DNA of 64,000 nt from Escherichia coli (GCF_048403405.1 NZ_CP183129.1); one strand, 5' to 3'. Counted from the stretch's first letter, positions 9,346 to 59,700 are shown. Program-made: numbers and translations. Notes: generated by a model not told the origin, from the letters alone.

Positions 9346-9436
9346 AACGCCTCCTGACGCAACAACTTACCCGCACAAAATAGAATTGTGCTGTACAAAC
9401 GTCCAGTTGGAAAGGCATTTCCTGCGAGGCGCTACG

Positions 9437-9469
9437 CAAAAATACAAAAGGCCGAACGCGTCGGCCTTC
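9437..9469 (-). terminator. Rho-independent terminator downstream of udp
   Basis: On the minus strand: GGCCGACGCGTTCGGCC hairpin followed by TTTTGTATTTTT, about 20 nt after the udp stop. Confidence 0.6.
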
Positions 9470-9485
9470 AGACAGGAGAAGAGGA

Positions 9486-10247
9486 TTACAGCAGACGACG
9501 CGCCGCTTCCACCACGATTTTCACCGCTTGGCTTTCAGTTTGTTTCATCGTCTCAGCATTCGGGATCTCTTGCTGGGTGCGGTTAACGATAACACCCGCT
9601 ACCATACCGGCACGTAGGCCCTGACTTGCACACATGGTCAGCAGGGTTGCAGATTCCATTTCATAGTTCATTACGCCCATCGCCTGCCACTCTTCCATAG
9701 AACCTTTAAAGTGACGAACTACGCGACCAGAGTAAGTATCGTAACGTTCCTGACCTGGGTAGAAGGTATCAGAAGAAGCCGTCACGCCAACGTGAGTCGT
9801 CGCGCCGATGGATTTCGCAGCCTCAACCAGCGCAGTCGTACATTCGAAATCAGCGACAGCCGGGAATTCCAGCGGTGCGAAGTGCAGGCTCGCGCCATCC
9901 AGACGAACAGACGCCGTGGTAACCAGGACATCACCCACATTAATATGCGGCTGAATAGCGCCCGTTGTACCGATACGCAGGAAGGTGCGAATGCCCAGCT
10001 GTGCCAGCTCTTCAACAGCAATAGAGGTAGACGGGCCGCCGATACCGGTAGAGCAGACGATAACAGGTTTACCATCCAGCTCTGCACGCCAGGTGGTGAA
10101 TTCGCGGTGAGATGCCAGCTTAACCGGCTTATCCATCAGCGCGGCGATCTTTTCCACACGATCCGGGTCGCCAGGGACGATGGCAAGCGTAGCCCCTTGT
10201 AAATCGTTTTTAGTGAGGCCGAGATGAAAAACATCAGACTTGGACAT
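9486..10247 (-). CDS. udp: Uridine phosphorylase
   Basis: ORF open to 10253; canonical 253-aa Udp begins [19 protein letters not shown]. Confidence 0.95.
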
Positions 10248-10508: not shown

Positions 10509-11318
10509 ATGGCAACAACACAACAATCTGGATTTGCACCTGCTGCATCGCCTCTAGCTTCGACCATCGTTCAGACCCTGGACGACGCGATTGTGGCGGG
10601 CTTCACCTCTATCCCTTCACAAGGGGATAACATGCCTGCTTACCATGCCAGACCAAAGCAAAGCGATGGCCCACTGCCAGTGGTCATTGTAGTGCAGGAA
10701 ATTTTTGGCGTGCATGAACATATTCGCGACATTTGTCGCCGTCTGGCGCTGGAGGGGTATCTGGCTATCGCACCTGAACTTTACTTCCGCGAAGGCGATC
10801 CGAATGATTTTGCCGATATCCCCACGTTGCTTAGCGGTCTGGTAGCAAAAGTGCCTGACTCGCAGGTGCTGGCCGATCTCGATCATGTCGCCAGTTGGGC
10901 TTCCCGCAACGGCGGCGATGTTCATCGTTTAATGATCACCGGATTCTGCTGGGGTGGACGTATCACCTGGCTGTATGCCGCGCATAATCCACAGCTAAAA
11001 GCCGCAGTGGCGTGGTACGGCAAACTGACGGGCGATAAGTCGCTGAATTCACCGAAACAACCTGTTGATATCGCAACCGATCTTAACGCGCCGGTTCTCG
11101 GCTTATATGGCGGCCAGGATAACAGCATTTCGCAAGAGAGCGTGGAAACGATGCGCCAGGCGCTGCGGGCAGCAAACGCGAAAGCAGAAATTATCGTGTA
11201 CCCGGATGCAGGGCATGCGTTCAACGCCGATTATCGTCCGAGCTATCATGCCGAGTCTGCGAAAGACGGCTGGCAGCGAATGTTGGAATGGTTTACACAG
11301 TATGGTGTTAAAAAGTAA
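10509..11318 (+). CDS. ysgA: Dienelactone hydrolase family protein (YsgA-like)
   Basis: ORF open from 10443; start placed at MATTQQSGFAPAAS, which is preceded by a GGAGA SD. Alpha/beta-hydrolase features (GFCWGG nucleophile elbow). Confidence 0.85.
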   Translation: MATTQQSGFAPAASPLASTIVQTLDDAIVAGFTSIPSQGDNMPAYHARPKQSDGPLPVVIVVQEIFGVHEHIRDICRRLALEGYLAIAPELYFREGDPNDFADIPTLLSGLVAKVPDSQVLADLDHVASWASRNGGDVHRLMITGFCWGGRITWLYAAHNPQLKAAVAWYGKLTGDKSLNSPKQPVDIATDLNAPVLGLYGGQDNSISQESVETMRQALRAANAKAEIIVYPDAGHAFNADYRPSYHAESAKDGWQRMLEWFTQYGVKK

Positions 11319-11574
11319 CGCCATAGTCGCTAAATCTGATGATTAAGCTCACACAATTTCAACGATTTTTTTAATCTCAAAACCATACAGCATCAAAAAA
11401 TTTGTTGCTGTATGCCACTCTTTGACTCCCTTCACATTCGTCATCACACCACCTGCTGAATGCAAAAATTTCGTTGCTGTGCGGCAAACTTTTTTCCTGT
11501 TTTGTGCCGCTTTTCTCCTGAATACTCGTTCTCAGAACAACTGGATCGTTTAAACATCAGACAGGAGATTTACC

Positions 11575-12243
11575 ATGACGCAATCCATTTTTCAGGCTCA
11601 ACCCTTTGAATTACCTTTTGATCCGCGCACAACTGCACTGGTCATGATCGACATGCAGCGTGACTTTGTCGAAGCAGGGGGCTTCGGTGAGGCACTGGGC
11701 AATGATGTTTCACTGGTACGCACGGCTATCGCACCATGTACAGAGGTGCTGGCAGCCGCACGTCAAAAAGGAATTATGGTTATTCATACTCGTGAAGGCC
11801 ATCGTGCAGACTTAAGCGACTGCCCGCCAGCCAAACTGACGCGCGGCGGAAAAACCTTTATTGGTGAACCAGGACCGATGGGACGCATTCTGGTCAGAGG
11901 TGAAGCAGGTCATGACATCATTCCTGAACTGTACCCGGTGGCAGGCGAACCGGTGATTGATAAGCCTGGCAAAGGCGCGTTTTATCAAACCGACTTACAT
12001 CTGATTTTGCAAAACCACGGTATCAAGACGCTGATAGTTTGTGGTGTAACAACCGAAGTTTGCGTAACCACCACCGTGCGCGAAGCAAATGATCGTGGCT
12101 ATGAATGCATTATCCCGGAAGATTGTGTCGGCTCCTATTTCCCGGAATTCCAGAAATACGCCCTCGAGATGATCAAAGCACAAGGTGCCATTTTCGGTTG
12201 GGTTACTGATTCCAAAGCCATTATTGCAGGTCTGGAAGGCTAA
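11575..12243 (+). CDS. Isochorismatase-family cysteine hydrolase (RutB / N-carbamoylsarcosine amidase / biuret hydrolase-like amidase)
   Basis: 222-aa ORF with the isochorismatase-fold signature: Asp in VMIDMQRDF near the N-terminus and catalytic Cys in CGVTTEVCV. AGGAGA SD upstream. First gene of accessory operon A. Confidence 0.8.
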   Translation: MTQSIFQAQPFELPFDPRTTALVMIDMQRDFVEAGGFGEALGNDVSLVRTAIAPCTEVLAAARQKGIMVIHTREGHRADLSDCPPAKLTRGGKTFIGEPGPMGRILVRGEAGHDIIPELYPVAGEPVIDKPGKGAFYQTDLHLILQNHGIKTLIVCGVTTEVCVTTTVREANDRGYECIIPEDCVGSYFPEFQKYALEMIKAQGAIFGWVTDSKAIIAGLEG

Positions 12244-12248
12244 CGCCG

Positions 12249-13109
12249 ATGGCACAGATTACGCTTTGCGCATCGTCGTTGGGATATCTTTTCCCGCAGA
12301 ATGAAACGCAAGATTTACGTCTGCATAGCGCTTTTAAACATGCGGTAAATCTGTATTCAGAAGCGGGAACATTCATCACTCTGTTGTGTGCGCAAACGTA
12401 TCTGAATCTCCCTGATGCTGCCAGAGTCTGGCTACCTGAATGTTGGGACTGGCGAAGAGAGATTGCCCATTCCGATCCCGTTCAGTTAACCCCAGGCTTA
12501 CTGCAGACACCTCGCTTTTGTGTGGCTCTCGATAACGCAACGCTCTGGCAGCCGTCATTTGTGGGAGGAAGGCTGACACTTGAGGCGTTCCCTTTGGTTT
12601 TCCAGCACTACCCAACGATGGCATCGCAACGGCTTTTATTTTGTCTGGAGCATAACGTTCAAAGCACATTGCACCTGCCGGATAGTCTCACGCACCAGGG
12701 ATTAGCGATTATGGAACATCCAGATGCGCTGGAACGCCAGGTGCCACAACTGATCGGCTTTGGTAAAGGCTTAACGCCCGATGGAGATGACTATTTGTTG
12801 GGCTATCTGGCAGCACTCTGGTTATGGCAACTCCCTGCACCACTTGCCGATCATCAATACCGGTTGCAGCAGGCAATTGATCAACATGCGCACAACACCA
12901 CGGATATCAGTCGTCATTATCTGGAGCGTGCGCTTCAGGGACATTTTTCAGAACCGATTTGCCAGTTACTCGCACAACTGGTTGGGAGCGCATCGGCAAT
13001 GACAATCGCATCCTGTGCAGAACAGGTCATGCAATTTGGCGCAACGTCAGGAGTAGATTGCCTTGCAGGAATGCTGCATGGCTTTCGAACCCTGAACACC
13101 ATGAATTGA
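12249..13109 (+). CDS. DUF2877-family protein (YlbF/YahE/AllH-like subunit of an oxamate-carbamoyltransferase-type complex)
   Basis: 286-aa ORF starting 6 nt after the previous stop; Gly-rich motifs GKGLTPDGDDYLLGY and GATSGVD resemble the DUF2877 family as I recall it. Position matches the yahE-yahF-yahG-yahI order. Confidence 0.65.
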   Translation: MAQITLCASSLGYLFPQNETQDLRLHSAFKHAVNLYSEAGTFITLLCAQTYLNLPDAARVWLPECWDWRREIAHSDPVQLTPGLLQTPRFCVALDNATLWQPSFVGGRLTLEAFPLVFQHYPTMASQRLLFCLEHNVQSTLHLPDSLTHQGLAIMEHPDALERQVPQLIGFGKGLTPDGDDYLLGYLAALWLWQLPAPLADHQYRLQQAIDQHAHNTTDISRHYLERALQGHFSEPICQLLAQLVGSASAMTIASCAEQVMQFGATSGVDCLAGMLHGFRTLNTMN

Positions 13110-13203
13110 TTTCAACCTTTTCTCCTGTAGCTCATTTATGGCGCTACACGGGGATGCTTTGCCCGAATTTTACTATCGGGCGGAATGAAACAGGCGTAAC
13201 AGC

Positions 13204-14763
13204 ATGAAAGTTAAATATAAAGTTTTCAGTAATCTTTATCAGGACTCAGTTTCTCTGATGCAGATTTCCGCGCAAATCAGCAAGTTGCCCGGTATTCAAC
13301 AGGCCTCGGTCGTCATGGGAACACCCAATAATCTCGAACAATTGCGCGATGCGGGTCTGGGTAACGAAATCAACGCCAGTCCCAATGATTTAGTGATTGC
13401 AGTCATGGGTGAAGAAGATATTTGCAATGAAGCACTGGCACTGGCCCAGCAACGTCTGACCAGCAAACCCGATGATGAAACGGATAGTGGCATTAAAACA
13501 CCGGAAAATGTCAGCCTGGACATGGCACTGGAAGCCGAACCCGAAGCCAACCTGGCACTCATTTCTGTACCGGGAGACTACGCCGCCGCCGAAGCAATTA
13601 AAGCGTTAAACCTCGGAATGAACGTGATGATGTTCAGCGATAACGTCAGTATCGCGCAGGAAAAATCCATCAAAATACTTGCCCGAGAACGTCAGCGCAT
13701 CGTAATGGGACCTGACTGTGGAACCGCCATTGTTAACGGCATTCCGTTAGGCTTCGCTAATGTGGTGAAACGCGGAGCAATTGGTGTTATTGGCGCGTCA
13801 GGCACCGGGCTACAGGAAGTGACTTGCCGAATCGACCAGCTCGGAGCGGGTATTTCTCAGGCGCTGGGAACAGGCGGGCATGATCTCAGTGAAGAGATTG
13901 GTGGAATATCGATGCTCTTCGCTTTAGATGCGCTGGCGCAAGACGATGAAACTCGCGTAATTGTGCTGATTTCAAAACCGCCTTCACCGATCGTTGCCCG
14001 GACTATTCTGGAGCGTGCCGAGGCTTGTGGAAAACCCGTGGTGGTGAATTTCCTCGGTGCGAATCCGCATGATCTGGCACGTCCCAATATCACTGCCGCC
14101 ACCACACTTGCCAGCGCCGCCGACATCGCTGTGGCGTTACTGAATGCTCAGCCACTTCCGGCTGTCGAGACCGAGATTTCCTGCGCCGATCTCACAATGT
14201 TACAAAACGCCTGTCAGCGCCTGCCAGCCCATCGCCAGGCGATACGCGGTGTTTTCGCCGGAGGAACCTTCTGCTACGAAGCGCAACTTATCTGCCAGCA
14301 AAAGGGATTCCGCGCCGCCTCCAATACGCCAGTTGCGAGTAATCGTACTCTGGCAAATATCTGGCAAAGCGAAGATCACACGCTGATCGATATGGGCGAC
14401 GATGATTTCACCCGTGGCAAACCGCATCCAATGATCGACCCGACTCTGCGCAATCAACGTCTGCTCAACGAACTCAACGACTCACACACTGCCGTCGTGT
14501 TATTCGACCTGGTACTTGGTTATGGCGCTTCCGCTACACCTGCCAGCGAATTACTGGACCAACTTTCACACATCGACATGAATAACGCACCGTTGCTGAT
14601 TGCGCACGTTTGCGGAACGGAAGCTGATCCGCAAATACGCAGTCAGCAGATAAGCGCACTACAAAATGCGGGCATCATCATTGCCAGCAGCAATGCACAG
14701 GCGGCGCTATGGGCCAGCGTCGTTGCGCAGACTCAGTTGCAGAAAAAGGGGCTAAACGCATGA
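13204..14763 (+). CDS. FdrA-like protein (CoA-binding / succinyl-CoA-synthetase-like fold; AllF/YahF family)
   Basis: 519-aa ORF sharing long motifs with E. coli FdrA as I recall it (NLALISVPGDYAA, MMFSDNVS, MGPDCGTAIVNGIPLGFANVV, GVIGASGTGLQEV, GRPHPMIDPTLRNQ). Confidence 0.8.
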   Translation: MKVKYKVFSNLYQDSVSLMQISAQISKLPGIQQASVVMGTPNNLEQLRDAGLGNEINASPNDLVIAVMGEEDICNEALALAQQRLTSKPDDETDSGIKTPENVSLDMALEAEPEANLALISVPGDYAAAEAIKALNLGMNVMMFSDNVSIAQEKSIKILARERQRIVMGPDCGTAIVNGIPLGFANVVKRGAIGVIGASGTGLQEVTCRIDQLGAGISQALGTGGHDLSEEIGGISMLFALDALAQDDETRVIVLISKPPSPIVARTILERAEACGKPVVVNFLGANPHDLARPNITAATTLASAADIAVALLNAQPLPAVETEISCADLTMLQNACQRLPAHRQAIRGVFAGGTFCYEAQLICQQKGFRAASNTPVASNRTLANIWQSEDHTLIDMGDDDFTRGKPHPMIDPTLRNQRLLNELNDSHTAVVLFDLVLGYGASATPASELLDQLSHIDMNNAPLLIAHVCGTEADPQIRSQQISALQNAGIIIASSNAQAALWASVVAQTQLQKKGLNA

Positions 14764-16184
14764 ATACCTTATTTAATCAGCCTTTGAAGGTTGTGAACGC
14801 GGGACTACACAGTTTTGCTGACAATATTCAACATGCCGGGGGAAGCGCAATTGCACTCAACTGGCAGCCACCAGCACAAGGCGATATTGACGCTGGATTG
14901 GATCTGGCATCGTTGCTACGTCATCCACTGGTAGAAAATGCCAACCAAATCGCCATGACACGTTATCTCGAAGCACAGCCCGTGCTGGTAGATGTCATGC
15001 TCGCTAAAGAGGCCATTCCAGCAATGGCTGAACAAAAACGTATTTTGCACTCTGGCCCGCCGATTGCCTGGGAAGAGATGTGTGGTCCGGTAAAAGGGGC
15101 GATTATTGGTGCCATGCTGTACGAAGGTTGGGCCACCAGCCAGCAAGACGCTGAAAACCAGATAAACGCAGGCGAAATCGACCTTGCCCCTTGTCATCAT
15201 TATCACGCGGTTGGCCCAATGGCTGGCATCATCAGCCCGTCGATGCCGTTATGGGTGGTAGAAAACAAAACCAACGGCCACCGTACTTTTAGCAATTTCA
15301 ATGAAGGTCTGGGTAAGGTTCTCCGTTTTGGCGCCAATAACGATGAAGTTCTCAATCGTCTGGCCTGGATGCGCGATGAACTGGCGCCGGCAATGAAAGC
15401 AGCAATCGCACAACACGGCGAGCTGGAACTCAAGCCATTAATGGCGCAGGCGCTGCATATGGGGGATGAAGTTCATAACCGCAATGCTGCCGCTACCGGT
15501 TTGCTGATTAAGCGCCTGCTCCCGGCATTGCTGGCCTGCTCTCTTCCACAGGAACATATCCAGCGCGTCGTGGCATTTATCACCGGTAACGATCACTTCT
15601 TCCTCAATCTGTCGATGGCTGCCTGTAAAGCAATGATGGATGCCGCCGCCAATGTACCGTTCAGTTCAATGGTTACGGTGATGGCGCGTAACGGGGTGAA
15701 TTTTGGTATTCGGCTTTCCGGTACTGGCGATCGCTGGTTCCAGGCTCCTGCCAATGCCGTTGAAGGTCTGTTCTTCCCCGGATTTGGCGTTGACGACGCT
15801 GCTGCTGACCTGGGTGATAGCGCAATTACTGAAACCGCAGGTGTGGGTGGCTTCGCGATGGCGTCGTCTCCGGCGATCGTCAAATTTGTGGGAGGCACCC
15901 CTGCCGATGCCACCAATAACAGCCGTCGGATGCAAGCCATCACCCTCGGCGGTAACCCCGCATTTACACTTCCAGCCCTCAATTTTGCCCCCACCGCAGC
16001 AGGGATTGATGCGCGTAAAGTGACCGATCGCGGCATTTTACCGGTCATCAATACGGGTATCGCCCACAAACAAGCGGGGGTCGGGCAAATTGGTGCCGGG
16101 ATCACCACTGCGCCGATGGCCTGTTTTGTCGCCGCTGTACGTGCACTGGCGGAGATCGTCGCAAAGGAGAACCATCATGGTTAA
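14760..16184 (+). CDS. DUF1116-family protein (YlbE/YahG/AllG-like)
   Basis: ORF open from 14709; I place the start at the ATG at 14760, which overlaps the FdrA-like stop (ATGA), giving MNTLFNQPLKVVNAG. Same gene order as yahF-yahG and fdrA-ylbE. Confidence 0.75.
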   Translation: MNTLFNQPLKVVNAGLHSFADNIQHAGGSAIALNWQPPAQGDIDAGLDLASLLRHPLVENANQIAMTRYLEAQPVLVDVMLAKEAIPAMAEQKRILHSGPPIAWEEMCGPVKGAIIGAMLYEGWATSQQDAENQINAGEIDLAPCHHYHAVGPMAGIISPSMPLWVVENKTNGHRTFSNFNEGLGKVLRFGANNDEVLNRLAWMRDELAPAMKAAIAQHGELELKPLMAQALHMGDEVHNRNAAATGLLIKRLLPALLACSLPQEHIQRVVAFITGNDHFFLNLSMAACKAMMDAAANVPFSSMVTVMARNGVNFGIRLSGTGDRWFQAPANAVEGLFFPGFGVDDAAADLGDSAITETAGVGGFAMASSPAIVKFVGGTPADATNNSRRMQAITLGGNPAFTLPALNFAPTAAGIDARKVTDRGILPVINTGIAHKQAGVGQIGAGITTAPMACFVAAVRALAEIVAKENHHG

Positions 16185-17133
16185 GCCACTGGCTGTTGTC
16201 GCGGTTGGCGGCAATGCGCTCATTCAGGACGAGCAACGCAATAGTATTCCCGATCAATATGTTGCAGTGATGGAAAGCGTGCAGCATATCGTTGATATGG
16301 TTGAAGCCGGATGGGACCTGGTGCTAACCCACGGTAATGGCCCGCAGGTGGGCTTTATTCTGCGCCGCTCTGAACTCGCCAGTAACGAAGTTTCTCCGGT
16401 TCCACTTGATTACGCCGTGGGTGATACACAAGGTGCAATTGGCTACATGTTCCAGAAAGCGCTGCATTACGAATTGGCTCGCCGTGGCATAAACAAACCG
16501 GTAATTGCCCTGGTGACACAAACGCGAGTCAGCCCACATGACGATGCTTTCGCCAACCCCAGTAAACCGATTGGCGCGTTTCTCGATGAAGCAACGGCCC
16601 AACAACGCCAACAACAACTCGGCTGGACGCTGATGGAGGACGCCGGGCGTGGTTGGCGGCGTACAGTTCCCTCTCCTGCACCACTGGAAATTATTGAGCA
16701 CGACACCATCGCTCACCTGGTGCGCCAGGGATATCTGGTTATTGCCTGCGGCGGCGGCGGTATTCCGGTGGTGCGAGACGGGCAACAACTGAAAGGTGTA
16801 GAAGCCGTGATCGATAAAGATCTGGCCTCCGCGCTGCTCGCCAGTCAGTTAGGCGCAGATCTGCTGGTGATCCCCACCGGTGTAGAAAAAGTGGCGATTA
16901 ACTTTGGTACACCACAACAACAGTGGCTCGACGCTATCAGCGTTGCCGAAGCGCAAACGCTGTTGCGGGAAGGTCAGTTTGGTGTCGGCAGTATGCAACC
17001 CAAAGTGGAAGCCATTGTTGATTTCATCAATGCCAGCCAGCAACAAGGCAAACAGGCCAGCGGCCTGATTACTTCACCGCAAACCATAAAAGCAGCCCTG
17101 GCGCATCAGAGCGGTACATGGATAACCCTTTAA
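16177..17133 (+). CDS. Carbamate kinase (ArcC/YahI/AllK family)
   Basis: ORF open from 16090; start placed at MVKPLAVVAVGGNALI (the classic carbamate kinase N-terminus) with an AAGGAGA SD 7 nt upstream; 8-bp overlap with the preceding gene. Confidence 0.85.
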   Translation: MVKPLAVVAVGGNALIQDEQRNSIPDQYVAVMESVQHIVDMVEAGWDLVLTHGNGPQVGFILRRSELASNEVSPVPLDYAVGDTQGAIGYMFQKALHYELARRGINKPVIALVTQTRVSPHDDAFANPSKPIGAFLDEATAQQRQQQLGWTLMEDAGRGWRRTVPSPAPLEIIEHDTIAHLVRQGYLVIACGGGGIPVVRDGQQLKGVEAVIDKDLASALLASQLGADLLVIPTGVEKVAINFGTPQQQWLDAISVAEAQTLLREGQFGVGSMQPKVEAIVDFINASQQQGKQASGLITSPQTIKAALAHQSGTWITL

Positions 17134-17149
17134 ATCTCTGGAGAACACA

Positions 17150-17539
17150 ATGACTACAACGCTTTTAGCCGTTAACGGAACGCTGATGCGCGGCCTGGAA
17201 CTCAACCCAAATATGAAAAAAGCGGGCGGTATTTTTGTCCGTGAAGACCGAACTGACGCCCATTACCGGTTGTGGAGTATTAACGATCGCCATCCGGGAA
17301 TGATTCGCGTGAATGAAGGAGGAACACACGTCGACGTAGAAATTTGGCAATTACCGCTGGCCAGTTTTGCCGCTCTGTTAATGAGCGAACCCGCTGGGCT
17401 GGCAATTGGCAAAATCAAACTTGCCGATGGTAGCGAAGTGCTGGGCGTACTGGCAGAAAACTGGCTGACCGAAGGCCAACGGGAAATTACAGAACTGGGC
17501 GGCTGGCGCAAATACACCGGGCATTTTCATACTGTGTAA
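17150..17539 (+). CDS. Small protein resembling the C-terminal domain of allophanate hydrolase (GGCT-like fold), tentative
   Basis: 129-aa ORF. The segment YRLWSINDRHPGMIRVNEGGTHVDVEIWQLPLASFAALLMSEPAGLAIGKIKLADGSEVLGVLAENW...LGGWRKY resembles the allophanate hydrolase C-terminal domain pattern as I remember it. Assignment from memory only. Confidence 0.5.
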   Translation: MTTTLLAVNGTLMRGLELNPNMKKAGGIFVREDRTDAHYRLWSINDRHPGMIRVNEGGTHVDVEIWQLPLASFAALLMSEPAGLAIGKIKLADGSEVLGVLAENWLTEGQREITELGGWRKYTGHFHTV

Positions 17540-17564
17540 CGCGCATTTATAAAGGGAACATACT

Positions 17565-18788
17565 ATGCGTAAAAAAGAAGAGAATCTGAATACGGCATCA
17601 GGATTGCGTATTGCCATGATTTTGCTGGGTATTGCCGTCACACCTGTGCTGTTGTCATCCTCAAGCCTCGGCAATCAACTTTCCAGCGGCAGTTTAATTA
17701 GCGTCGTATTGTTAGGCGGCGTCATTCTGACCTTACTTTCAGCCATCACCATTAGCGTGGGAGAAAAAGCCCGCCTGCCAACGTATGGCATTGTGAAATA
17801 TTCGTTTGGCGAAAAAGGGGCCATCGCCATTAACATTTTGATGGCGATAAGTCTGTTCGGCTGGATTGCCGTTACCGCCAATATGTTTGGTCATTCGGTA
17901 CATGACTTACTGGCTCAACATGGACTGGAAGTTCCACTGGCACTGTTAGTGGCGGCTGGCTGTGTCATTTTTGTCGCCTCTACGGCATTTGGCTTTGCCG
18001 TTCTGGGAAAAATTGCCCAGGTTGCCGTGCCGGTTATCGCGCTGGTGCTGTGTTACATCCTCTATGTGGCAACCCATACCGAAGTGGCAGTACCAGCGGC
18101 GATTGTGGAGATGAATACAGGTGTCGCCGTTTCCACCGTTGTTGGCACCATTATTGTGCTGGTTGCCACACTGCCTGATTTCGGTAGTTTTGTGCATAAC
18201 CGCAAACATGCACTGATTGCCGCAGGCGTGACGTTTCTGGTTGCCTACCCTCTGCTCTACTGGGCGGGTGCAACGCCGAGCGCCATTAGTGGTCAGGGAT
18301 CTTTACTGGGTGCGATGGCGGTATTCGGTGCGGTTCTGCCTGCGGCGCTGTTGTTGATTTTCGCCTGCGTCACCGGTAACGCGGGCAATATGTTCCAGGG
18401 CACGCTGGTGGTTTCCACACTGCTTACCCGCTTTCCCAAATGGCAGATTACCGTGGCGCTGGGTATCCTTTCCGCCATCGTAGGCAGTATGGATATTATG
18501 GCGTGGTTTATTCCGTTTCTGCTGTTCCTGGGTATCGCCACGCCACCCGTTGCCGGAATTTATATCGCTGACTTTTTCCTTTATCGCCGTAATGGCTATC
18601 AAGAGTCAGTGTTAGCCCAGGAGTCACAGATTAAAGTGCTGACATTCGCAGCATGGATCATAGGCGCAGCGGTTGGCTTTATGACCGTAAAAGGCTTATT
18701 CACCCTGACGACGATCCCTTCGGTAGACTCGATTCTGGTGGCATGTATCGCGTATGCGATTCTCAGTCGGGCAAGTCAACACCGCTAA
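17565..18788 (+). CDS. NCS1-family nucleobase/hydantoin-type permease (CodB-like)
   Basis: 407-aa polytopic membrane protein (about 12 hydrophobic segments) with length and organisation like the cytosine permease CodB. Confidence 0.75.
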   Translation: MRKKEENLNTASGLRIAMILLGIAVTPVLLSSSSLGNQLSSGSLISVVLLGGVILTLLSAITISVGEKARLPTYGIVKYSFGEKGAIAINILMAISLFGWIAVTANMFGHSVHDLLAQHGLEVPLALLVAAGCVIFVASTAFGFAVLGKIAQVAVPVIALVLCYILYVATHTEVAVPAAIVEMNTGVAVSTVVGTIIVLVATLPDFGSFVHNRKHALIAAGVTFLVAYPLLYWAGATPSAISGQGSLLGAMAVFGAVLPAALLLIFACVTGNAGNMFQGTLVVSTLLTRFPKWQITVALGILSAIVGSMDIMAWFIPFLLFLGIATPPVAGIYIADFFLYRRNGYQESVLAQESQIKVLTFAAWIIGAAVGFMTVKGLFTLTTIPSVDSILVACIAYAILSRASQHR

Positions 18789-18865
18789 TTCCTGGGTATA
18801 CTCAGGCAATGATTACGGCTGAATCTGGAGAGATTCAGCCACTTTACCACTGACCAGGGAGCCTT

Positions 18866-19771
18866 ATGTTCATCTCAGACGAAACGCTTCGTGTTATTCA
18901 TCTGGTCGCCAGACACCAGAGCATTACCATCGCAGCCGAGCAGTTAAATAAAGTCCCTTCCGCCATCAGTTACACCATCAAGAAAGCGGAAGAGAGCCTG
19001 GGCGTTGAACTGTTCATTCGTAAGGGACGCTATATTGAATTATCGCCAGCGGGAAGTTACTTCATCGAACATAGCAAAACTATTCTTGGCGACCTGGAAG
19101 CATTAAAGCGCAACACAGTGCTGATTCACGATGGTATTGAGCGTGAACTGACAATTGCGGTAAACAATATTATTCCTGGTAATTTGCTGGTGGCATTTAT
19201 TCGAGATTTTGAACGGCAATTCACATCAACAACACTGACGGTAGATCTTGAGGTATACAACGGCTGCTGGGATGCGCTGTACAGTAAGCGTGCTGATCTG
19301 GTCTACGGTGCTCCTCATGCAGTACCAAGTAGTGAAGGCATCATTAGCGAACCGGTCGGACAAATGGAATGGGATTTTGTCGTCAGCCCACTCCACCCAC
19401 TGGCAGCGAAGCGGCATCCATTAGAAAACAGTGAATTGCGTCATTATCCAGCGGTTTGTATCCGCGATACCTCCGTTAACTTCCCCCCGATGCAAGCCTG
19501 GTTGTTGGAAGGACAAAAACCCATTTTTGTTCCTGACTTCGCTACGGCAATCGCCTTAATAGAACAAAACGTCGGTATTGGTTATATTCCACATCATCTG
19601 GCATTGCCGTTATTGAACAGCGGTAAATTGCTTAAAAAGCCAATGCGCGAACATAAACACGCCACCAAGTTATTTCTTGCCGCTCGTTCCGATGGTATGG
19701 GCAAAGCCTGTCAGTGGTGCATAGAATATTTAAGAAACCCGCAATTAATGACACGATTTGTATTTAATTGA
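18866..19771 (+). CDS. LysR-family transcriptional regulator
   Basis: 301-aa ORF with N-terminal HTH (ITIAAEQLNKVPSAISYTIKKAEESLGVELFIRKGR) and C-terminal LysR substrate-binding domain. Confidence 0.85.
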   Translation: MFISDETLRVIHLVARHQSITIAAEQLNKVPSAISYTIKKAEESLGVELFIRKGRYIELSPAGSYFIEHSKTILGDLEALKRNTVLIHDGIERELTIAVNNIIPGNLLVAFIRDFERQFTSTTLTVDLEVYNGCWDALYSKRADLVYGAPHAVPSSEGIISEPVGQMEWDFVVSPLHPLAAKRHPLENSELRHYPAVCIRDTSVNFPPMQAWLLEGQKPIFVPDFATAIALIEQNVGIGYIPHHLALPLLNSGKLLKKPMREHKHATKLFLAARSDGMGKACQWCIEYLRNPQLMTRFVFN

Positions 19772-19899
19772 CAATACAATGATAAAAATATAAGTCTTGC
19801 TTTAATTAGAGCGCCCGTTTAAATTATTTTTGTGCAGTTGACGTAACTCATGAAAATTAACCGGTCTGTTAATCATTACGTTCACTGCACACCTTCATT

Positions 19900-19940
19900 T
19901 TTTCACACCTATCCACGCCTGAAAACTATGTTATAATCAG
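19900..19940 (+). promoter_or_regulatory. Putative sigma70 promoter with extended -10 (TGTTATAAT) for the RpiR-family gene
   Basis: TGTTATAAT at about 19929-19937 in an AT-rich intergenic region, about 30 nt upstream of the ATG at 19971. No convincing -35. Confidence 0.3.
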
Positions 19941-19970
19941 CACTTTCTGTCAGAATGAAATTTACTAATT

Positions 19971-20816
19971 ATGAATAACATAACCGTAAAAAGTCTGATT
20001 CAAAGCAATTACCCTACACTGCATCAGGCGGAAAAAAAGGTCGCCGACTATATTCTTAGCCACGCACATGAAGTCGTGAACTATAGTGTCACTGAACTAT
20101 CAGAAAAAAGCCATGCCAGTGAAGCGACTATCGTGCGCACCTGTAAGAAATTAGGTTATCAGGGTTATTACCATTTAAAAATTGCATTAGCAAAAGAAGT
20201 CATTAATCCTGACAATAGCTATCCTGATAATACCGATTTTACCGATATAACGTCGCTGGCCACATTTTTATTAAAAAAACAGGCCGAAGATTTAATACAA
20301 TCAACGCAATTTTTTAATGCCGAAGTGCTTGAGTCCATTCTCAAACTACTTGCTAATTGCGATACTATTTTCTTTTTTGCTGCCGGAAATTCAAACCCTC
20401 TGGCCGTTTATGGTGCTTATAAATTCAGCCAACTCGGATTAAAAACCGTTGTTCACGTCAGCCCGGAAATGCAAATTAATGCGGCATATTCTATGGGGAA
20501 ACGCGACCTGGCGATTGGTATTTCTAACTCTGGCAGCACCAACTTAATGGTCGATATCTTTAAAGTGGTGAAAGAGCGCGGTGCCAAATCCGTTTGTATC
20601 ACTAACTATATTAAATCTCCGTTATCAAAACTCTCCACCCATCAACTCAATACCGCGGTCAGCGATAAAATCTTCTTTGAAGCCTTCGACTCCACTCGCG
20701 TTCCGGCAATGGGCGTTATTGATATGCTGGTGCTGTTGTTTATGTATAAAAACAAGGCGCATTACGAGAAATACCGCACCCGTGAAGAGTTTCTCGGCTC
20801 CCGTTTCAAGGGGTAA
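19971..20816 (+). CDS. RpiR/MurR-family transcriptional regulator (HTH + SIS domain)
   Basis: 281-aa ORF with N-terminal HTH_6-type region (SVTELSEKSHASEATIVRTCKKLGYQGYYHLK) and C-terminal SIS domain. Confidence 0.85.
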   Translation: MNNITVKSLIQSNYPTLHQAEKKVADYILSHAHEVVNYSVTELSEKSHASEATIVRTCKKLGYQGYYHLKIALAKEVINPDNSYPDNTDFTDITSLATFLLKKQAEDLIQSTQFFNAEVLESILKLLANCDTIFFFAAGNSNPLAVYGAYKFSQLGLKTVVHVSPEMQINAAYSMGKRDLAIGISNSGSTNLMVDIFKVVKERGAKSVCITNYIKSPLSKLSTHQLNTAVSDKIFFEAFDSTRVPAMGVIDMLVLLFMYKNKAHYEKYRTREEFLGSRFKG

Positions 20817-20840
20817 AAGGTCATCCTTTCACCCCTTGTG
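20810..20840. terminator. Hairpin between the convergent RpiR-family and transketolase genes (possible bidirectional terminator)
   Basis: GGGGTAAAAGG-TCAT-CCTTTCACCCC inverted repeat overlapping the rpiR-like stop codon, followed by TTGTG; 30-bp gap between convergent stops. Confidence 0.4.
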
Positions 20841-20845
20841 CAGGT

Positions 20846-22843
20846 TTAGCTATTCAGTAGCTCACGCGCCTGCGCCAGGACATTTTCCGGCGTAAAACCA
20901 AAGTGTTTGAACAACACATTCGCCGGAGCAGACTCACCAAAGCTCGTCATCCCAATGACTTTACCATCCAGACCGACGTAGCGTTCCCAGAATCCGGCGA
21001 TGCTGGCTTCTACCGCCAGACGTTTGCGTACAGCTTTTGGCAATACCGATTCTTTGTACGCCGCATCCTGATTATCGAAACGCTCGGTACACGGCATGGA
21101 AACTACGCGAACTTTACGCCCTTCTTCCGTTAACGCTTTTGCGGCGCTGACCACTAACTCAATCTCTGAACCCGCAGAAATGAGGATCATCTCAGGCTGA
21201 CCGTCACAATCACTCAGTACATAACCACCACGCGCAATCTCTGCCAACTGTGCAGCGGTGCGCGGCTGTTGCGCCAGCGGTTGGCGCGTTAATACCAACG
21301 ACGTTGGGCCATCTTTGCGCTCAATCGCCTGTTGCCAGGCCACCGCCACTTCCACCTGATCGCAACCGCGCCAGGTTTCCATATTCGGCGTCAGACGCAG
21401 CGACGCCAGTTGCTCAACGGGCTGATGTGTCGGGCCGTCTTCGCCCAGGCCGATGGTATCGTGGGTATAAACAAACACCGAGCGGATCTTCATCAGCGCC
21501 GCCATGCGCAGTGCATTACGCGCATATTCCATAAACATCAGGAAAGTACCGCCGTAAGGGATAAACCCACCATGCAGCGCAAGACCGTTCATGATGGCCG
21601 ACATACCAAATTCACGCACGCCATAGGAGATGTAATTCCCCGCCGGATTTTCCCCGGTGAAATCAACCGATTTCTGATGGCGAGTCAGGTTAGAGGGCGA
21701 CAAGTCCGCCGAGCCGCCCATCAGTTCCGGCAGCATATCAGCGAAGTGATTGAGGCATTTCTGGCTGACCTGACGGGTTGCCAGCGCCGCCGGATGGGAT
21801 TGCAGATCGTGCACATATTTCTGCATATTCTCGGCCCAGCCAGCAGGCAAATCACCCTTCATGCGACGAGTAAACTCCGCCGCCAGTTCCGGCCACTGCT
21901 TCGCGTAGTCAGCAAACAGTGCATCCCATTCCTGTTGAACCTGCGCGCCTTTCTCGGTCGCATCCCATTCGGCATAAATTTCACCAGGAATTTCGAAAGG
22001 GGCATACGGCCATTGCAGACGTTCACGCACCAGCGCCACTTCATCTGCACCCAGCGCCGAGCCGTGGCAATCGTGGCTGTTGGCTTTATTTGGTGAACCA
22101 AAACCGATAATCGTTTTGCAGCACAGCAGACTGGGCTTATCCGTGACGCTTTTCGCTTCACGCACCGCAGCATCTACCGCTTCTGGATCGTGACCATCAA
22201 CGCCTTCAATGACATGCCAGCCGTAGGCACGAAAACGGGCAGCCGTATCTTCAGCGAACCAGCCTTCTACGTGACCATCGATCGAAATACCGTTATCGTC
22301 CCAGATAGCAATCAGATTGCCGAGCTTCAGCGTTCCTGCAAGACCACAGGCCTCGTGGGAGATCCCTTCCATCAGGCAGCCATCACCCAAAAATAGCCAT
22401 GTGTGATGATCAACAATATTAAAGCCCGGTTTGTTAAATTCTGCCGCCAGCGCCTTCTCCGCAATCGCCATCCCCACCGCATTAGCTACGCCCTGCCCCA
22501 ACGGGCCGGTGGTGGTTTCAACACCCGGCGTATAACCATATTCTGGATGACCCGGCGTGCGGGAGTGGAGCTGACGAAAGTCGCGAATATCATCCATCGA
22601 CAGGTCGTAGCCTGTAAGATGCAGCAAAGCGTAAATCAACATGGAGCCGTGACCGTTCGACTGAACATAGCGGTCGCGGTTAAACCACTGCGGATTTTTT
22701 GGGTTATGACGCAGGTGACGACGCCAGACCACTTCGGCAATATCCGCCATCCCCATCGGCGCGCCCGGATGACCGGAGTTCGCTTTCTGGATCGCATCAA
22801 CACTTAACATTCGGATGGCATTAGCCAGTAATTGTGAATTCAT
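20846..22843 (-). CDS. tkt: Transketolase paralog (third tkt copy; possibly the ExPEC-associated 'tkt1')
   Basis: 665-aa ORF collinear with E. coli TktA/TktB over its whole length ([81 protein letters not shown]) but clearly divergent from both, and located in an accessory island. Confidence 0.9.
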
Positions 22844-22893
22844 ACTTCAGCTCTCTCTGTCTGGCGGGCTGAAACCAGCCCGCTAATCTCGAA

Positions 22894-24402
22894 TTAGTTA
22901 GCACAGGCCACTGTCATTTCTGTCGGGCGCGGTCTGCTCATTACGGTTTTAATTTCGTCGCGCAGGATTTGCGATTTGCCGCCAAATATCACCTGTACAC
23001 CGCCATCACCCAGTTTCACTAACCCCGCAGCCCCCAACTCCTTCAGCCGTTTTTCATTCACTTTCTTATCGTCTACCAGCGCCAGCCTCAGGCGTGTTGC
23101 GCAGGCATCCACATCTTCGATATTGTCGAAACCACCTACTGCTTCGATGATTTGGTATGGACGTTCTTCGCGCGTTAATGTGGTTGCAACGGCAATCTCT
23201 TCATCCTCACGTCCCGGTGTTTTCAGATTCAACTTGCGGATCAGTACCCGAAATACGGTGTAGTAAATCGCTGCATAGCCCGCGCCTGCCAGGAACACCA
23301 GATACCACGGCGTGCGGTTTGGCATAACGCCATTCAGTACGAAATCAATAAGACCGCCAGCAAAAGGATGACCAATGTGCACATTCAGGATGTTCATCAG
23401 CACAAATGAAGTGGCATATAAGAAGATGTGAATGATGTAGAGAACCGGAGCTGCAAACAAAAATGCATATTCCAGCGGCTCCGTAATCCCGGTAACAAAT
23501 GTGGTCAGCGCACCGGAGAGTAAAAGGCCTTTAATCAGCGCCTTACGTTCCGGTTTTGCTTCCTGATACATCGCCAACGCGGCGGCAGGTAACGCAAACA
23601 TCATGATCGGGAAACGACCTGTCATAAACAGCCCCGCCGTCAACGGAACACCGTCGCGCAATTGGGCAAAGAACACCGGAATATCGCCCGTCACCAGTTG
23701 CCCGGATTTGGTCATGTAGTCGCCAAAGTTGTAATAAAACGGCACGTTCCAGATATGATGCAGGCCAAAAGGAATCAGCGAACGTTCGCCAACGGCGTAA
23801 ATAAAGGCCGCGAAGTTCGCGTTATGCCCACTGGTCACCAGCGTTGAAAGCGACGCCAGACCTTTTTGTACCGGTATCCACAGCCACGGCAATAAATAGC
23901 CGACAATAATTGCCGCCACCGCCGTAATAATCGGTACAAAGCGTTTTCCACCGAAGAAACCAAGAAACTGAGGCAATTCAATATTGTGGAAGCGGGTATA
24001 GAGCAGATAAACAAAGATGGCGACAATCAAACCGCCAAACACTCCCGTTTGTAACGTCGGTACCCCGAGGATCATCGCATAGTCACCGTTACTGGCTGCA
24101 ACGGACTCCGCGGTAATGCCAAGTTGCGTTCCCATCGTGGCATTCATGATCATGTAACTGATAATCGCTGAAAGTGATGAAGAACCATCACCTGTCAGGC
24201 CAATCACAATACCGACACAAAACAGCAAAGGAAGGTTGGCGAAAATCAGGCCGCCGCAATTCGCCAGCAGCTCAATGTTAAATGAAATCCCGATGGCTAA
24301 AATCAAACCCGCCGCCGGAAGAATGGCGATTGGTAACATCAGAGCAGAAGAAAATTTCTGCAACTTCTTGAAGTTAAACAAGGATGTTATTTTTTTGCTC
24401 AT
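22894..24402 (-). CDS. PTS glucose-family EIICB component (EIIC domain followed by EIIB domain)
   Basis: 502-aa ORF: polytopic EIIC region, then a C-terminal EIIB domain with the phosphocysteine motif DACATRLRL. No EIIA domain. Confidence 0.85.
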   Translation of the reverse strand: MSKKITSLFNFKKLQKFSSALMLPIAILPAAGLILAIGISFNIELLANCGGLIFANLPLLFCVGIVIGLTGDGSSSLSAIISYMIMNATMGTQLGITAESVAASNGDYAMILGVPTLQTGVFGGLIVAIFVYLLYTRFHNIELPQFLGFFGGKRFVPIITAVAAIIVGYLLPWLWIPVQKGLASLSTLVTSGHNANFAAFIYAVGERSLIPFGLHHIWNVPFYYNFGDYMTKSGQLVTGDIPVFFAQLRDGVPLTAGLFMTGRFPIMMFALPAAALAMYQEAKPERKALIKGLLLSGALTTFVTGITEPLEYAFLFAAPVLYIIHIFLYATSFVLMNILNVHIGHPFAGGLIDFVLNGVMPNRTPWYLVFLAGAGYAAIYYTVFRVLIRKLNLKTPGREDEEIAVATTLTREERPYQIIEAVGGFDNIEDVDACATRLRLALVDDKKVNEKRLKELGAAGLVKLGDGGVQVIFGGKSQILRDEIKTVMSRPRPTEMTVACAN

Positions 24403-24443
24403 TTTTATTCTCCTGTAGGGTATCGAGCAAATAACGGCGACGA

Positions 24444-25001
24444 CTATTCCAGATTGGCGTGGCGCTTAAACAGTTCACTTTCCGGCGCACCACTTTCAGC
24501 AGCCATCTTCATCACTAATGCATCGGCAATCACCAGCAAAGCTTGCTCATACAACGACGCCATCGGCTGTGCCGAGCGGAAAACAGAATCTTTTTGATTT
24601 TTGGAAGGGGCATTGATTTGCACGATGACGTCGACAAACTCGGTGATAGTGGCGTGTCGATTCGTGGTTAACACCGCCACAGCGCCGCCAAGCTGACGTG
24701 CTTTTTTCGCCAGTGCCACCAGTTGTGCTGTCTCACCGGAAGCGGAAGAAACGATAAACAGATCGCCAGGCCCAAAGTTCGGCGTAATGGTTTCCGTCAG
24801 AAAGTAAACCTCTTTTCCCATATGCATCAGGCGCATGGTGAAGGCTTTCATGGAAAAGCCGGCGCGTCCCAGGCCATAGCAGAAAACGCGCTGGCTTTGC
24901 TGAATAGCGTCGATCAATTTGGTGCAGTCATCCTCACGGATAGAGTCCTTAACGAAGGTTAATTCATTGATGATCTCAGTGATGTACAGCTTTGCGTCCA
25001 T
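24444..25001 (-). CDS. SIS-domain sugar-phosphate isomerase resembling 6-phospho-3-hexuloisomerase (PHI/HxlB-like)
   Basis: ORF open to 25013; start placed at the second Met (MDAKLYITEII), which has a GAGGTG SD about 6 nt upstream. About 185 aa with FTMRLMHMG, SASGET and C-terminal HANLE, as in PHI/HxlB as I recall it. Confidence 0.7.
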   Translation of the reverse strand: MDAKLYITEIINELTFVKDSIREDDCTKLIDAIQQSQRVFCYGLGRAGFSMKAFTMRLMHMGKEVYFLTETITPNFGPGDLFIVSSASGETAQLVALAKKARQLGGAVAVLTTNRHATITEFVDVIVQINAPSKNQKDSVFRSAQPMASLYEQALLVIADALVMKMAAESGAPESELFKRHANLE

Positions 25002-25307
25002 TTCACACCTCATGAAATAATTTTCTCAAACACAAAATCTCATGAAATTTTATTTCATTCCAATGCATCAGTATGAAATGTGAAGCTAGTCACAAGAAAG
25101 ATCATAGGTTGATATGTTTTTCATTAAAAAACATATAGATATCAAGTAATTTTTAATATGTGATGGAGAGGCAGATAGAAAAAATGGCGGAAATGACGAA
25201 ATTTATTTCATGAGAAGGGAATAAAGAAGATTTTCTTAAACAGGGTATGAACTGATATCTGGAATGGTTTACGCAGTATGCTGGGAAGACGTCGCTGTAA
25301 TGAGAAA

Positions 25308-25338
25308 AGACCGGGTGGTATTACCACCCGGTTTGGAT
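25308..25338 (-). terminator. Rho-independent terminator downstream of metE
   Basis: ACCGGGTGG-TATT-ACCACCCGGT palindrome just 3' of the metE stop, flanked by T-rich tracts in both orientations. Confidence 0.5.
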
Positions 25339-25339
25339 T

Positions 25340-27601: not shown

Positions 27602-27718
27602 TATATGCCCCTTATGGAATTTTTAGTATTTAGCCGTCCAGATGTTTACACATCCATAATTGGCGGTTACTGTATATTCCTCAAGCGCAAATTATTCATG
27701 CCGAAGTGAAGGACTTTC

Positions 27719-59341: not shown

Positions 59342-59418
59342 TGGTCGGCGAGAGAGGATTCGAACCTCCGACCCACTGGTCCCAAACCAGTTGCGCTACC
59401 AAGCTGCGCTACTCGCCG
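59342..59418 (-). tRNA. proM: tRNA-Pro (anticodon TGG)
   Basis: Reverse complement reads CGGCGAGTAGCGCAGCTTGGTAGCGCAACTGGTTTGGGACCAGTGGGTCGGAGGTTCGAATCCTCTCTCGCCGACCA; cloverleaf with a TGG anticodon loop. Confidence 0.9.
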
Positions 59419-59460
59419 AAATACTGCTTTTTGAATTTTTAGTTCAATTCTTTAAAGTCG

Positions 59461-59546: not shown

Positions 59547-59566
59547 ATTGTCACAACTTCTAATAA

Positions 59567-59642: not shown

Positions 59643-59700
59643 CACTACAAATCTTGTTACGCGGTATTACTACCACCGCAGCTCAAGCGCCGGGACTAAA

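Follow-up and report, generated by a model that had tools for sequence, protein, structure and literature searches.

The 14-kb variant of the Escherichia coli tkt1 island is a composite of two metabolic modules, one of which may degrade a uric-acid-derived polyureide

Gene content of the ysgA-metE interval

The stretch of DNA analyzed here (hereafter the window) covers 64,000 nucleotides of Escherichia coli (NZ_CP183129.1) and carries, between the end of ysgA (+ strand, 11318) and the end of metE (- strand, 25340), a 14-kb variant of the tkt1 genomic island, an already described element whose existence, location and association with extraintestinal pathogenic E. coli (ExPEC) are known. The best overall explanation of the data, to which we assign a probability of roughly 0.55, is that this variant consists of two modules sitting at an old polymorphism, module A most likely serving polyureide catabolism and module B being a sugar unit. 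The additions made here to the published record are a map of four allelic states, corrected borders, evidence for a long residence of module A at the locus and for its presence on plasmids, and a biochemical hypothesis amenable to testing.

The RefSeq chromosome of E. coli TUM14771, which is 100% identical to the window over the whole segment, served as the reference annotation. It places 12 intact genes between ysgA and metE, eight on the plus strand followed by a gene for an RpiR-family regulator and three genes on the minus strand. An original prediction made from the nucleotide sequence had described this very layout, with plus-strand genes at 11575-19771, the RpiR gene at 19971-20816 and minus-strand genes at 20846-25001, and all of its coordinates for the ~14 kb and 12 genes separating ysgA from metE proved correct. 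Its statement that ysgA lies directly beside metE in K-12 was borne out by the K-12-like strain EC600, in which 39 bp separate the two stop codons, and the island it had in mind, the tkt1 island of ExPEC and avian pathogenic E. coli (APEC), is indeed the one found here (Li et al. 2012, PMC3349570). As it had also stated, neither integrase nor transposase genes are annotated in the segment; the nearest tRNA genes lie 34 kb away at 59.3-59.8 kb, where a minus-strand Pro-Leu-His-Arg cluster of four genes (59342-59777) is unrelated to the island borders. Rfam scans of window 10-28 kb and of a plasmid copy of module A returned no match, and a promoter scan was uninformative, detecting 7 promoter-like sites where 16 would be expected at random. 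The sole convincing terminator in the promoter and terminator scan was a K-12-type hairpin at 25310-25332.

Module A encodes a TrtA-type hydrolase and an FdrA-type carbamoyltransferase

The first plus-strand gene (11575-12243) encodes a 222-residue cysteine (isochorismatase-like) hydrolase in which both structural matches and individual residues point to a TrtA signature. Its best Protein Data Bank (PDB) matches were 6XIX, 6XJ4 and 6XJE (270 bits), followed by BiuH 6AZO (237 bits) and, at a distance, RutB (105 bits). The first three entries, labeled merely 'cysteine hydrolase' in the PDB, are taken here to be Herbaspirillum TrtA, 6XJE being named in the TrtA paper. The protein scored 280 bits with the BiuH model but only 112 bits with the RutB model, against a cut-off of 378, and is thus not a RutB equivalog. 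It shares 58.7% identity with TrtA and 53.5% with BiuH; its catalytic residues D26, K130 and C163 align with D24, K129 and C162 of TrtA, and the substrate-binding F, K and Q residues are also retained.

TrtA converts triuret to carboxybiuret with a ~10^4-fold preference over biuret (Tassoulas et al. 2021). By aligning over 500 sequences, the same authors identified six positions that part the TrtA consensus from that of BiuH (F35, N41, A134, E160, Y187 and I205); swaps to the BiuH residue mostly cut triuret activity by 50% to >90%, A134S alone being tolerated, and none of them raised biuret activity (Tassoulas et al. 2021). The island hydrolase matches TrtA at each of the six (F37, N43, A135, E161, Y188 and I206), whereas in Rhizobium BiuH they are occupied by Y, Y, S, D, T and V.

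The next three plus-strand genes encode the putative subunits of an FdrA-type carbamoyltransferase. They specify, in this order, a 286-residue DUF2877/AllH-like protein (12249-13109; Pfam AllH PF11392, E 5e-27) sharing 26% identity with K-12 YahE as well as with AllH/YlbF; a 519-residue FdrA/AllF-like protein (13204-14763; NCBIfam NF004760, 497 bits, above cut-off) 42% identical to YahF and 41% to AllF; and a 474-residue DUF1116 (AllG/YlbE-like) protein (14760-16184; PDB 3CLQ, 405 bits) 46% identical to YahG and 49% to AllG, orthologues of which are found at 63-88% identity in many phyla. Overlapping the end of the DUF1116 gene, arcC (16177-17133, +) encodes a 318-residue carbamate kinase scoring above the cut-offs of both TIGR00746 (366 bits) and NF009007 (375 bits), with 48% identity to YahI and 39% to AllK. 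In K-12, AllFGH interconverts oxalurate and inorganic phosphate with oxamate and carbamoyl phosphate, its partner carbamate kinase being AllK (Kim & Kim 2022, 2024; PMC11326118).

Downstream of arcC lies the gene for a stand-alone allophanate-hydrolase C-terminal-domain protein, AH_C, of 129 residues (17150-17539, +; Pfam AH_C PF21986, E 8e-42). This protein covers the last ~125 residues (positions ~440-600) of the allophanate hydrolase models and is devoid of an N-terminal amidase-signature domain; PDB entry 5C5Z is practically the same protein (127 of 129 residues identical), and the C-terminal regions of 4GYR and 4ISS align to it as well. The following gene (17565-18788, +) encodes a 407-residue CodB-like permease of the NCS1 family, presumed to take up the substrate; cytosine permease was its best NCBIfam match, yet the score of 146 bits falls far under the 326-bit cut-off of that model. 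In the RefSeq annotation, this gene is labeled 'cytosine permease' and the AH_C gene 'allophanate hydrolase-related'. The last plus-strand gene of the module (18866-19771) encodes a LysR-type regulator of 301 residues resembling PunR (286 bits) and AllS (214 bits), both scores being below cut-off. Its last seven codons come from the insertion of module B, and the allele carrying module A only diverges after window position 19749.

Module B is a candidate sugar-utilization unit

Module B opens with the 281-residue MurR/RpiR-family regulator (19971-20816, +), recognized from the annotation and from family models as a helix-turn-helix protein with a SIS domain. On the opposite strand are tkt1 (20846-22843), encoding a 665-residue transketolase paralogue (TIGR00232, 1009 bits against a cut-off of 682); a gene for a 502-residue enzyme IIBC (EIIBC) of the glucose family of the phosphotransferase system (PTS), devoid of an EIIA domain (22894-24402; TIGR02002, 609 bits against 592); and a gene for a 185-residue SIS-domain protein resembling 6-phospho-3-hexuloisomerase (PHI), hereafter hxlB (24444-25001; TIGR03127, 205 bits against 160). 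Upstream of hxlB, at 25010-25080, are several copies of a TCATGAAAT-like motif, one pair of which is inverted; these motifs may be candidate RpiR operators.

Tkt1 is full-length and 68.7% identical to K-12 TktA. All 16 checked active-site residues, which we take to be those contacting thiamine diphosphate, metal and substrate in the E. coli TktA structure, are conserved. The active site of Tkt1 being intact, its sequence offers no explanation for the reported failure of this protein to complement a tktA mutant on arabinose (PMC3349570). In the same study, Phenotype MicroArray analysis of a tkt1 mutant revealed impaired use of Pro-Ala and Phe-Ala as nitrogen source, the only defects recorded being in dipeptide nitrogen (PMC3349570).

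A set comprising the SIS protein, EIIBC, transketolase and RpiR regulator also occurs in Klebsiella pneumoniae, and a version with a split transketolase and an EIIBCA occurs in Enterococcus; module B therefore looks like a conserved catabolic unit for some PTS sugar. The SIS protein itself has few close relatives outside E. coli, and no paper on a PTS-PHI-transketolase-RpiR unit was found in the literature. In the model that we favor, EIIBC would take up and phosphorylate the sugar and, since it lacks an EIIA domain, would depend on the general EIIA-Glc; the PHI-like isomerase would convert the EIIBC product to a ketose phosphate, which Tkt1 would feed into the pentose-phosphate pathway, and RpiR would control the module.

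The two modules have separate distributions and define four allelic states

Counts refer to 5,426 complete E. coli genomes, the presence of the full segment being scored at a coverage of at least 80%. The original prediction that the segment is accessory held: the full island was found in 1,133 genomes, K-12-like strains are empty at the site, and, rather than being shared by K-12 and most commensals, these genes are missing from the site in ~72% of the genomes. Module A (searched as 11400-19800) occurred in 1,554-1,559 genomes, at 1,502 chromosomal and 129 plasmid places, and module B (RpiR-tkt1-ptsG-hxlB) in 1,134 genomes, practically always on the chromosome. It follows from these counts that ~370 genomes harbor module A alone.

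E. coli C exemplifies the allele with module A only. The locus of CFT073 corresponds to this allele plus one clean insertion of 7,509 bp in the last lysR codons, which comprises module B and a 2.1-kb segment with an Hcp/TssD pseudogene; module B was thus inserted later, into the lysR 3' end. The junction between the two modules is common to the window and CFT073, and the part of the 7.5-kb insertion kept in the window extends from 19750 to 25115, the match to CFT073 ending at ~25115. Neither the Hcp segment nor the A-type junction to metE is present in the window. The 14-kb form, recognized by the right junction of the window, was found in 672 genomes, including those of sequence type ST131, and the 16-kb form in ~460. 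Two simple derivations were ruled out by the junction sequences, that of the 14-kb form from the 16-kb form by deletion and that of the K-12 arrangement from the A-only form by deletion.

The end of the 16-kb variant (CFT073 locus stretch 16820-18960) consists of the Hcp/TssD pseudogene and two small open reading frames (ORFs). The same Hcp segment is found, at 87-96% identity, in ~390 further E. coli genomes without module B. At the equivalent locus of Citrobacter amalonaticus (stretch 3229-3708), on the other side of module A, there are an Hcp-like ORF and an ORF that looks like a serine recombinase.

The island is best described as two independent metabolic modules joined at a locus with an old presence/absence polymorphism and not as a recently integrated mobile element. 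Of the proposal that it was an old, stable replacement island, the age and the replacement stand, the latter because the island brings its own divergent ysgA 3' end; as a refinement, the island is not one unit, there being two modules with differing distributions and at least four allelic states.

Phylogroup assignments are taken here from named strains and from Li et al., who found tkt1 in 85-99% of B2 isolates and the island to be concentrated in phylogroup B2 ExPEC (PMC3349570). Since 2012 the island has served as an epidemiological marker for B2 ExPEC, so that its rediscovery is not news. A map of the alleles (none, A only, 16 kb, 14 kb) provides a cleaner typing scheme than 'tkt1-positive' and reveals that a polymerase chain reaction for tkt1 overlooks the ~370 A-only genomes and the plasmid copies.

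The borders of the island suggest homologous recombination and include a duplicated ysgA end

The prediction had set the borders at 11319-25339. While these positions are right as gene ends, they are not the edges of the non-K-12 DNA: the left edge lies inside ysgA, and K-12-like sequence resumes from 25259. Relative to EC600, identity is 99-100% up to ~11024 and then drops, over roughly the last 250 bp of ysgA, to 96% and then 89%, CFT073 behaving likewise. The 3' part of ysgA (11050-11318, +) is thus a divergent, island-linked allele, the product of which ends in ...QYGVKK*, compared to ...QYGGKKSL* in K-12 and ...QYGSKK* in C. amalonaticus; module A, in other words, brings its own ysgA 3' end. 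Such a gradient of divergence at the left boundary would be the pattern of homologous recombination and not of site-specific insertion.

Also at variance with the prediction, which saw no obvious direct repeat at the borders, a 33-nt repeat of 82% identity was found at 11284-11316 and 25260-25292, with a spacing of 13,976 nt. The left copy (+) is the functional ysgA 3' end. The right copy belongs to a 42-bp remnant (25259-25300, +) of a K-12-type ysgA 3' end, which can be aligned with the terminal 46 bp of the K-12-like gene and has decayed, with three non-synonymous differences from K-12. It is this remnant that creates the direct repeat, which therefore represents a duplicated ysgA 3' end; its right-hand copy is absent from the 16-kb (CFT073) and A-only alleles. 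Between the remnant and metE lies the K-12-type hairpin terminator mentioned above (10-bp stem, seven GC pairs), identical to the K-12-like sequence, and between the hxlB leader and the remnant lies a 143-bp segment (25116-25258) exclusive to the 14-kb variant, without match in the CFT073 locus. Part of this segment (25198-25221) forms an inverted repeat with the hxlB leader (25002-25025).

Further upstream, rmuC adjoins udp as it does in K-12 (intergenic region at window ~9345-9486). At the rmuC-udp junction, CFT073 and E. coli C have an islet for a tripartite tricarboxylate transporter (Tct), known from Li et al. as the '5-kb islet'; in the window strain, the tkt1 island thus coexists with a udp-rmuC junction of the K-12 kind.

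Module A is probably an old resident of the locus and also occurs on plasmids

Four observations argue for an old polymorphism rather than a recent acquisition. The GC content of the island (50.3%) is close to that of the window (51.5%), the two regulator genes being the only AT-rich ones. In strain E69 (CP089930.1), which has the A-only allele, module A is 94-96% identical to that of the window and the flanking genes udp, ysgA and metE are 93-96% identical, indicating that module and flanks diverged together. Module A lies between ysgA and metE in C. amalonaticus and abuts metE in Lelliottia. Finally, ysgA and metE of the window are 96.5-96.6% identical to those of K-12, compared to 98.8% for udp. 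E69, a GTDB species representative labeled E. coli, probably belongs to a divergent Escherichia lineage. Across metE-metR (25340-28140), many 100-nt bins of metE are 93-96% identical to K-12 and the intergenic bin is 86% identical, as opposed to 99-100% in udp and most of ysgA, which suggests an old haplotype block on the metE side of the locus.

A search of PLSDB retrieved module A on 82 conjugative plasmids at ~94.4% identity, 78 of them from E. coli and four from Klebsiella, and many of those listed come from poultry or pig isolates. The one plasmid that was typed (NZ_CP071329.1) is IncFIB/IncFIC and has module A beside iron ABC-transporter and bacteriocin-immunity genes. In the plasmid copy examined, the module is enclosed by 136-nt direct repeats, 98% identical and 8,686 nt apart (8609-8744 and 17295-17430), for which Rfam returned no match. 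About 7 kb downstream on NZ_CP071329.1 (24168-26187) is a series of LysR, ankyrin-repeat and DUF2877 genes similar to K-12 yahB-yahD-yahE, such that this one plasmid holds two FdrA-type carbamoyltransferase systems.

The core of module A is conserved across species

A scan with the DUF1116 protein, using one genome per species, identified 79 loci from species other than E. coli. A TrtA-like gene was present in 67 of them, carbamate kinase in 70, AH_C in 66 and a syntenic permease in 47; the five-gene core (trtA, fdrA, DUF1116, arcC and AH_C) occurred together in 56 of the 79, usually in the same order. The loci span gamma-, beta- and alpha-proteobacteria, actinomycetes and Nitrospira, among them Serratia, Rahnella, Edwardsiella, Citrobacter, Caballeronia/Paraburkholderia, Silvimonas, Photobacterium, Vibrio, Shewanella, Aeromonas, Avibacterium, Thorsellia and comammox Nitrospira. 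Out of 72 hydrolase sequences from these loci, 65 had the full TrtA signature and six the BiuH signature. All six BiuH-type genes were in metagenome genomes of the Nitrospira group (Nitrospira/Nitrospiraceae), and three of the corresponding loci also had a TrtA-type copy.

Some of the species harboring the core are associated with birds or insects (Avibacterium, Thorsellia anophelis, Entomohabitans, Limnobaculum allomyrinae), hosts that excrete uric acid. Both Avibacterium loci feature, beside the module, a second and more distant DUF1116 paralogue, accompanied in one of them by an FdrA-like gene.

A possible ATP-yielding route for triuret degradation

From the identity of its genes, module A most likely imports and degrades a polyureide derived from uric acid, triuret being the best candidate. 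The full pathway set out here, by which triuret or a near relative among the polyureides would be degraded with a yield of ATP, would be a previously unrecognized one and is advanced more tentatively; gene identities, distribution, breakpoints, synteny and signature residues are observed, while the substrates, the sequence of reactions and any connection with the host are inferences. The NCS1 permease would take up the compound, the TrtA-type hydrolase would remove a terminal amide to yield carboxybiuret and NH3, and the FdrA/DUF1116/DUF2877 enzyme, a paralogue of AllFGH, would split off carbamoyl groups with phosphate. Phosphorolysis of carboxybiuret would release carbamoyl phosphate and allophanate, and a second round might yield carbamoyl phosphate and carbamate; carbamate kinase would then convert carbamoyl phosphate to ATP, NH3 and CO2. 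The stand-alone AH_C protein may decarboxylate one of the N-carboxy intermediates, a role reportedly described for the C-terminal domain of allophanate hydrolase by Fan et al. in 2013. The LysR protein would regulate the module. This route would stand in place of the hydrolytic pathway through BiuH and AtzF.

The finding of a TrtA-type hydrolase without BiuH, TrtB or an AtzF amidase is most simply read as the FdrA-type enzyme taking over the product of the hydrolase. Carboxybiuret (H2N-CO-NH-CO-NH-COO-), which has a half-life of ~20 min, is structurally similar to oxalurate (H2N-CO-NH-CO-COO-). Triuret is reported to be the product of the oxidation of uric acid by peroxynitrite and to have been detected in human urine (cited through Tassoulas et al. 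2021). This source of triuret, and the fact that bird pathogens (APEC, Avibacterium) and bacteria associated with insects carry the module, lend plausibility to a substrate derived from the host.

Several points weigh against the overall interpretation. No paper linking triuret with E. coli or uropathogens was found in the accessible literature. The canonical partners BiuH, TrtB and the AtzF amidase domain are absent from the island annotation. The hydrolase is only 59% identical to characterized TrtA and 53% to BiuH; the cluster-linked hydrolases form a group of their own, which may act on a related but different ureide. The FdrA-type complex is only 26-49% identical to AllFGH and equally near the uncharacterized YahEFG. 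The proposed role of module B explains neither the dipeptide-nitrogen defects of the tkt1 mutant nor the failed tktA complementation reported by Li et al.

Should the triuret route prove correct, ExPEC, APEC and other bird- or insect-associated bacteria could draw both nitrogen and energy from a compound that arises as a by-product when the host is inflamed or excretes uric acid, which could explain why the module is found in an ExPEC-associated island and on IncF plasmids of poultry and pig isolates. A widespread accessory trait of ExPEC and APEC would thereby be tied to the chemistry of uric acid oxidation in birds, in urine and at sites of inflammation. A substrate would be assigned to the third FdrA-type carbamoyltransferase of E. 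coli, and an alternative to BiuH/AtzF would be defined in dozens of species.

Alternative explanations

The alternative that survives best, although we regard it as unlikely, is that module A is a third system of the AllFGHK/YahEFGI type acting on another ureide, such as biuret, an oxalurate derivative (e.g., oxalurate amide) or an N-carbamoyl compound, the TrtA signature of the hydrolase then reflecting ancestry. Consistent with this, the carbamoyltransferase subunits are equidistant from AllFGH and YahEFG and their genes follow the order of the yah cluster, the hydrolase is almost as close to BiuH as to TrtA, and the allFGHK genes of comammox Nitrospira and ammonia-oxidizing archaea (AOA) were read as oxalurate degradation genes in a 2025 study (PMC12625717). 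All six discriminating residues of the hydrolase are nonetheless of the TrtA type, at positions where most single swaps to the BiuH residue lower triuret activity and none raise biuret activity, and in the Nitrospira loci in which copies with either signature coexist, the two remain distinct.

It is improbable that the K-12 arrangement is the derived one, having arisen by deletion between the two 33-nt ysgA-end repeats of an island-bearing ancestor. Recombination of 11284-11316 with 25260-25292 would restore the exact K-12 junction, and module A appears to be ancestral at the ysgA-metE locus. The right-hand repeat, however, is restricted to the 14-kb variant, which appears to be secondary to the A-only and 16-kb forms; the three non-synonymous changes of the remnant fit a decaying leftover of a K-12-type allele; and K-12 ysgA is, over its last 240 bp, ~11% divergent from the allele linked to the island, a difference that a simple deletion would not generate.

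Still harder to sustain is the view that module A scavenges nitrogen from pyrimidines, in a Rut-like manner, or from carbamates in general, by CodB-like import, RutB-like release of carbamate and carbamate kinase. In a study that designated the island GR29 of strain BEN2908, acquisition of pyrimidine or carbamate nitrogen was speculated upon from CD-search and BLASTp matches to RutB, CodB, YqeA and FdrA (PLoS One 2026, PMC12928451), and cytosine permease is, as noted, the best NCBIfam match of the permease. Against this stand the preference of the hydrolase for the BiuH model and TrtA structures (280 and 270 bits) over the RutB model and structure (112 and 105 bits), the absence from the island annotation of RutA, RutC-G and other pyrimidine ring-opening enzymes, and the permease score of less than half the CodB cut-off (146 against 326 bits). 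Rut-like pyrimidine degradation was rejected on these profile and structure scores. The existence of that study also qualifies the statement in the original prediction that the content of the island beyond tkt1 is uncharacterized: it has been annotated and discussed (PMC12928451), although tkt1 is the only gene to have been tested experimentally.

The least probable of the explanations considered, namely a classical horizontally acquired pathogenicity island having since lost its recombinase gene, with the 33-nt repeats as attL and attR, could appeal to the direct repeat flanking the 14-kb variant, the enrichment in B2 ExPEC, the loss of mobility genes proposed by Li et al. and the mobility of module A evidenced by IncF plasmids and the 136-nt repeats around it, but founders on the absence of the right-hand repeat from the 16-kb (CFT073) and A-only variants, the lack of an integrase and of a tRNA target, a base composition near that of the host (50.3% against 51.5% GC), the gradient of divergence in ysgA expected of homologous recombination, and the occupation of the same locus in Citrobacter and Lelliottia.

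Comparison with known systems

Module B resembles the HxlB systems of the ribulose monophosphate pathway in that its SIS protein scores above the HxlB equivalog cut-off. It differs from them in that no hxlA gene accompanies it, be it in the island or in the equivalent sets of Klebsiella and Enterococcus, its partners being instead a PTS EIIBC, a transketolase and an RpiR regulator.

Module A shares with AllFGH-AllK and yahEFG-yahI of K-12 three adjacent genes of the FdrA, DUF1116 and DUF2877 types followed by a carbamate kinase gene, as well as a LysR regulator related to AllS and YahB. At 26-49% identity, its subunits are paralogues and not orthologues of AllFGH, and they are encoded at another locus, outside the allantoin regulon. 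A hydrolase of the TrtA type takes the upstream position held in K-12 by the AllD dehydrogenase or the YahJ amidohydrolase.

With TrtA of Herbaspirillum sp. BH-1, the island hydrolase has in common the isochorismatase-like fold, the D/K/C triad, the substrate-coordinating F, K and Q and the six second-shell residues, albeit at an overall identity of only 59%. In contrast to the Herbaspirillum triuret/biuret pathway, the island comprises no BiuH, TrtB or AtzF amidase and has an FdrA-type carbamoyltransferase, a carbamate kinase and a stand-alone AH_C protein.

In comammox Nitrospira and AOA, trtA/biuH were found near allFGHK and codB and were read as separate pathways for triuret/biuret and oxalurate (mSystems 2025, PMC12625717). 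Like module A, these nitrifier clusters bring hydrolases of the TrtA/BiuH type together with FdrA-type genes, a carbamate kinase gene and, in some cases, a gene for a CodB-like permease. They hold BiuH and AtzF in addition, whereas the only hydrolase of the E. coli module is of the TrtA type, on which ground we argue that its carbamoyltransferase acts on the TrtA product.

Closest of all is the tkt1 island itself, described as a 16-kb, 15-ORF element between metE and ysgA in APEC O1, CFT073 and 536 (Li et al. 2012, PMC3349570, BMC Microbiol 12:51). The element of APEC O1 and CFT073 occupies the same ysgA-metE locus, includes the same 12 genes, has no integrase or transposase and is absent from K-12; over 13,783 nt, CFT073 and the window are 98.8% identical at the nucleotide level, with identical gene lists. 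Compared to the published form, the window element measures 14.0 kb with 12 genes, is devoid of the ~2.1-kb Hcp/TssD-pseudogene segment, and has in its place 143 bp of unique sequence, the ysgA 3' remnant and a K-12-type terminator. Finally, Li et al. reported an absence of mobility genes and direct repeats from the island and suggested that the mobility genes had been lost (PMC3349570), whereas the 14-kb variant is flanked by one direct repeat of 33 nt.

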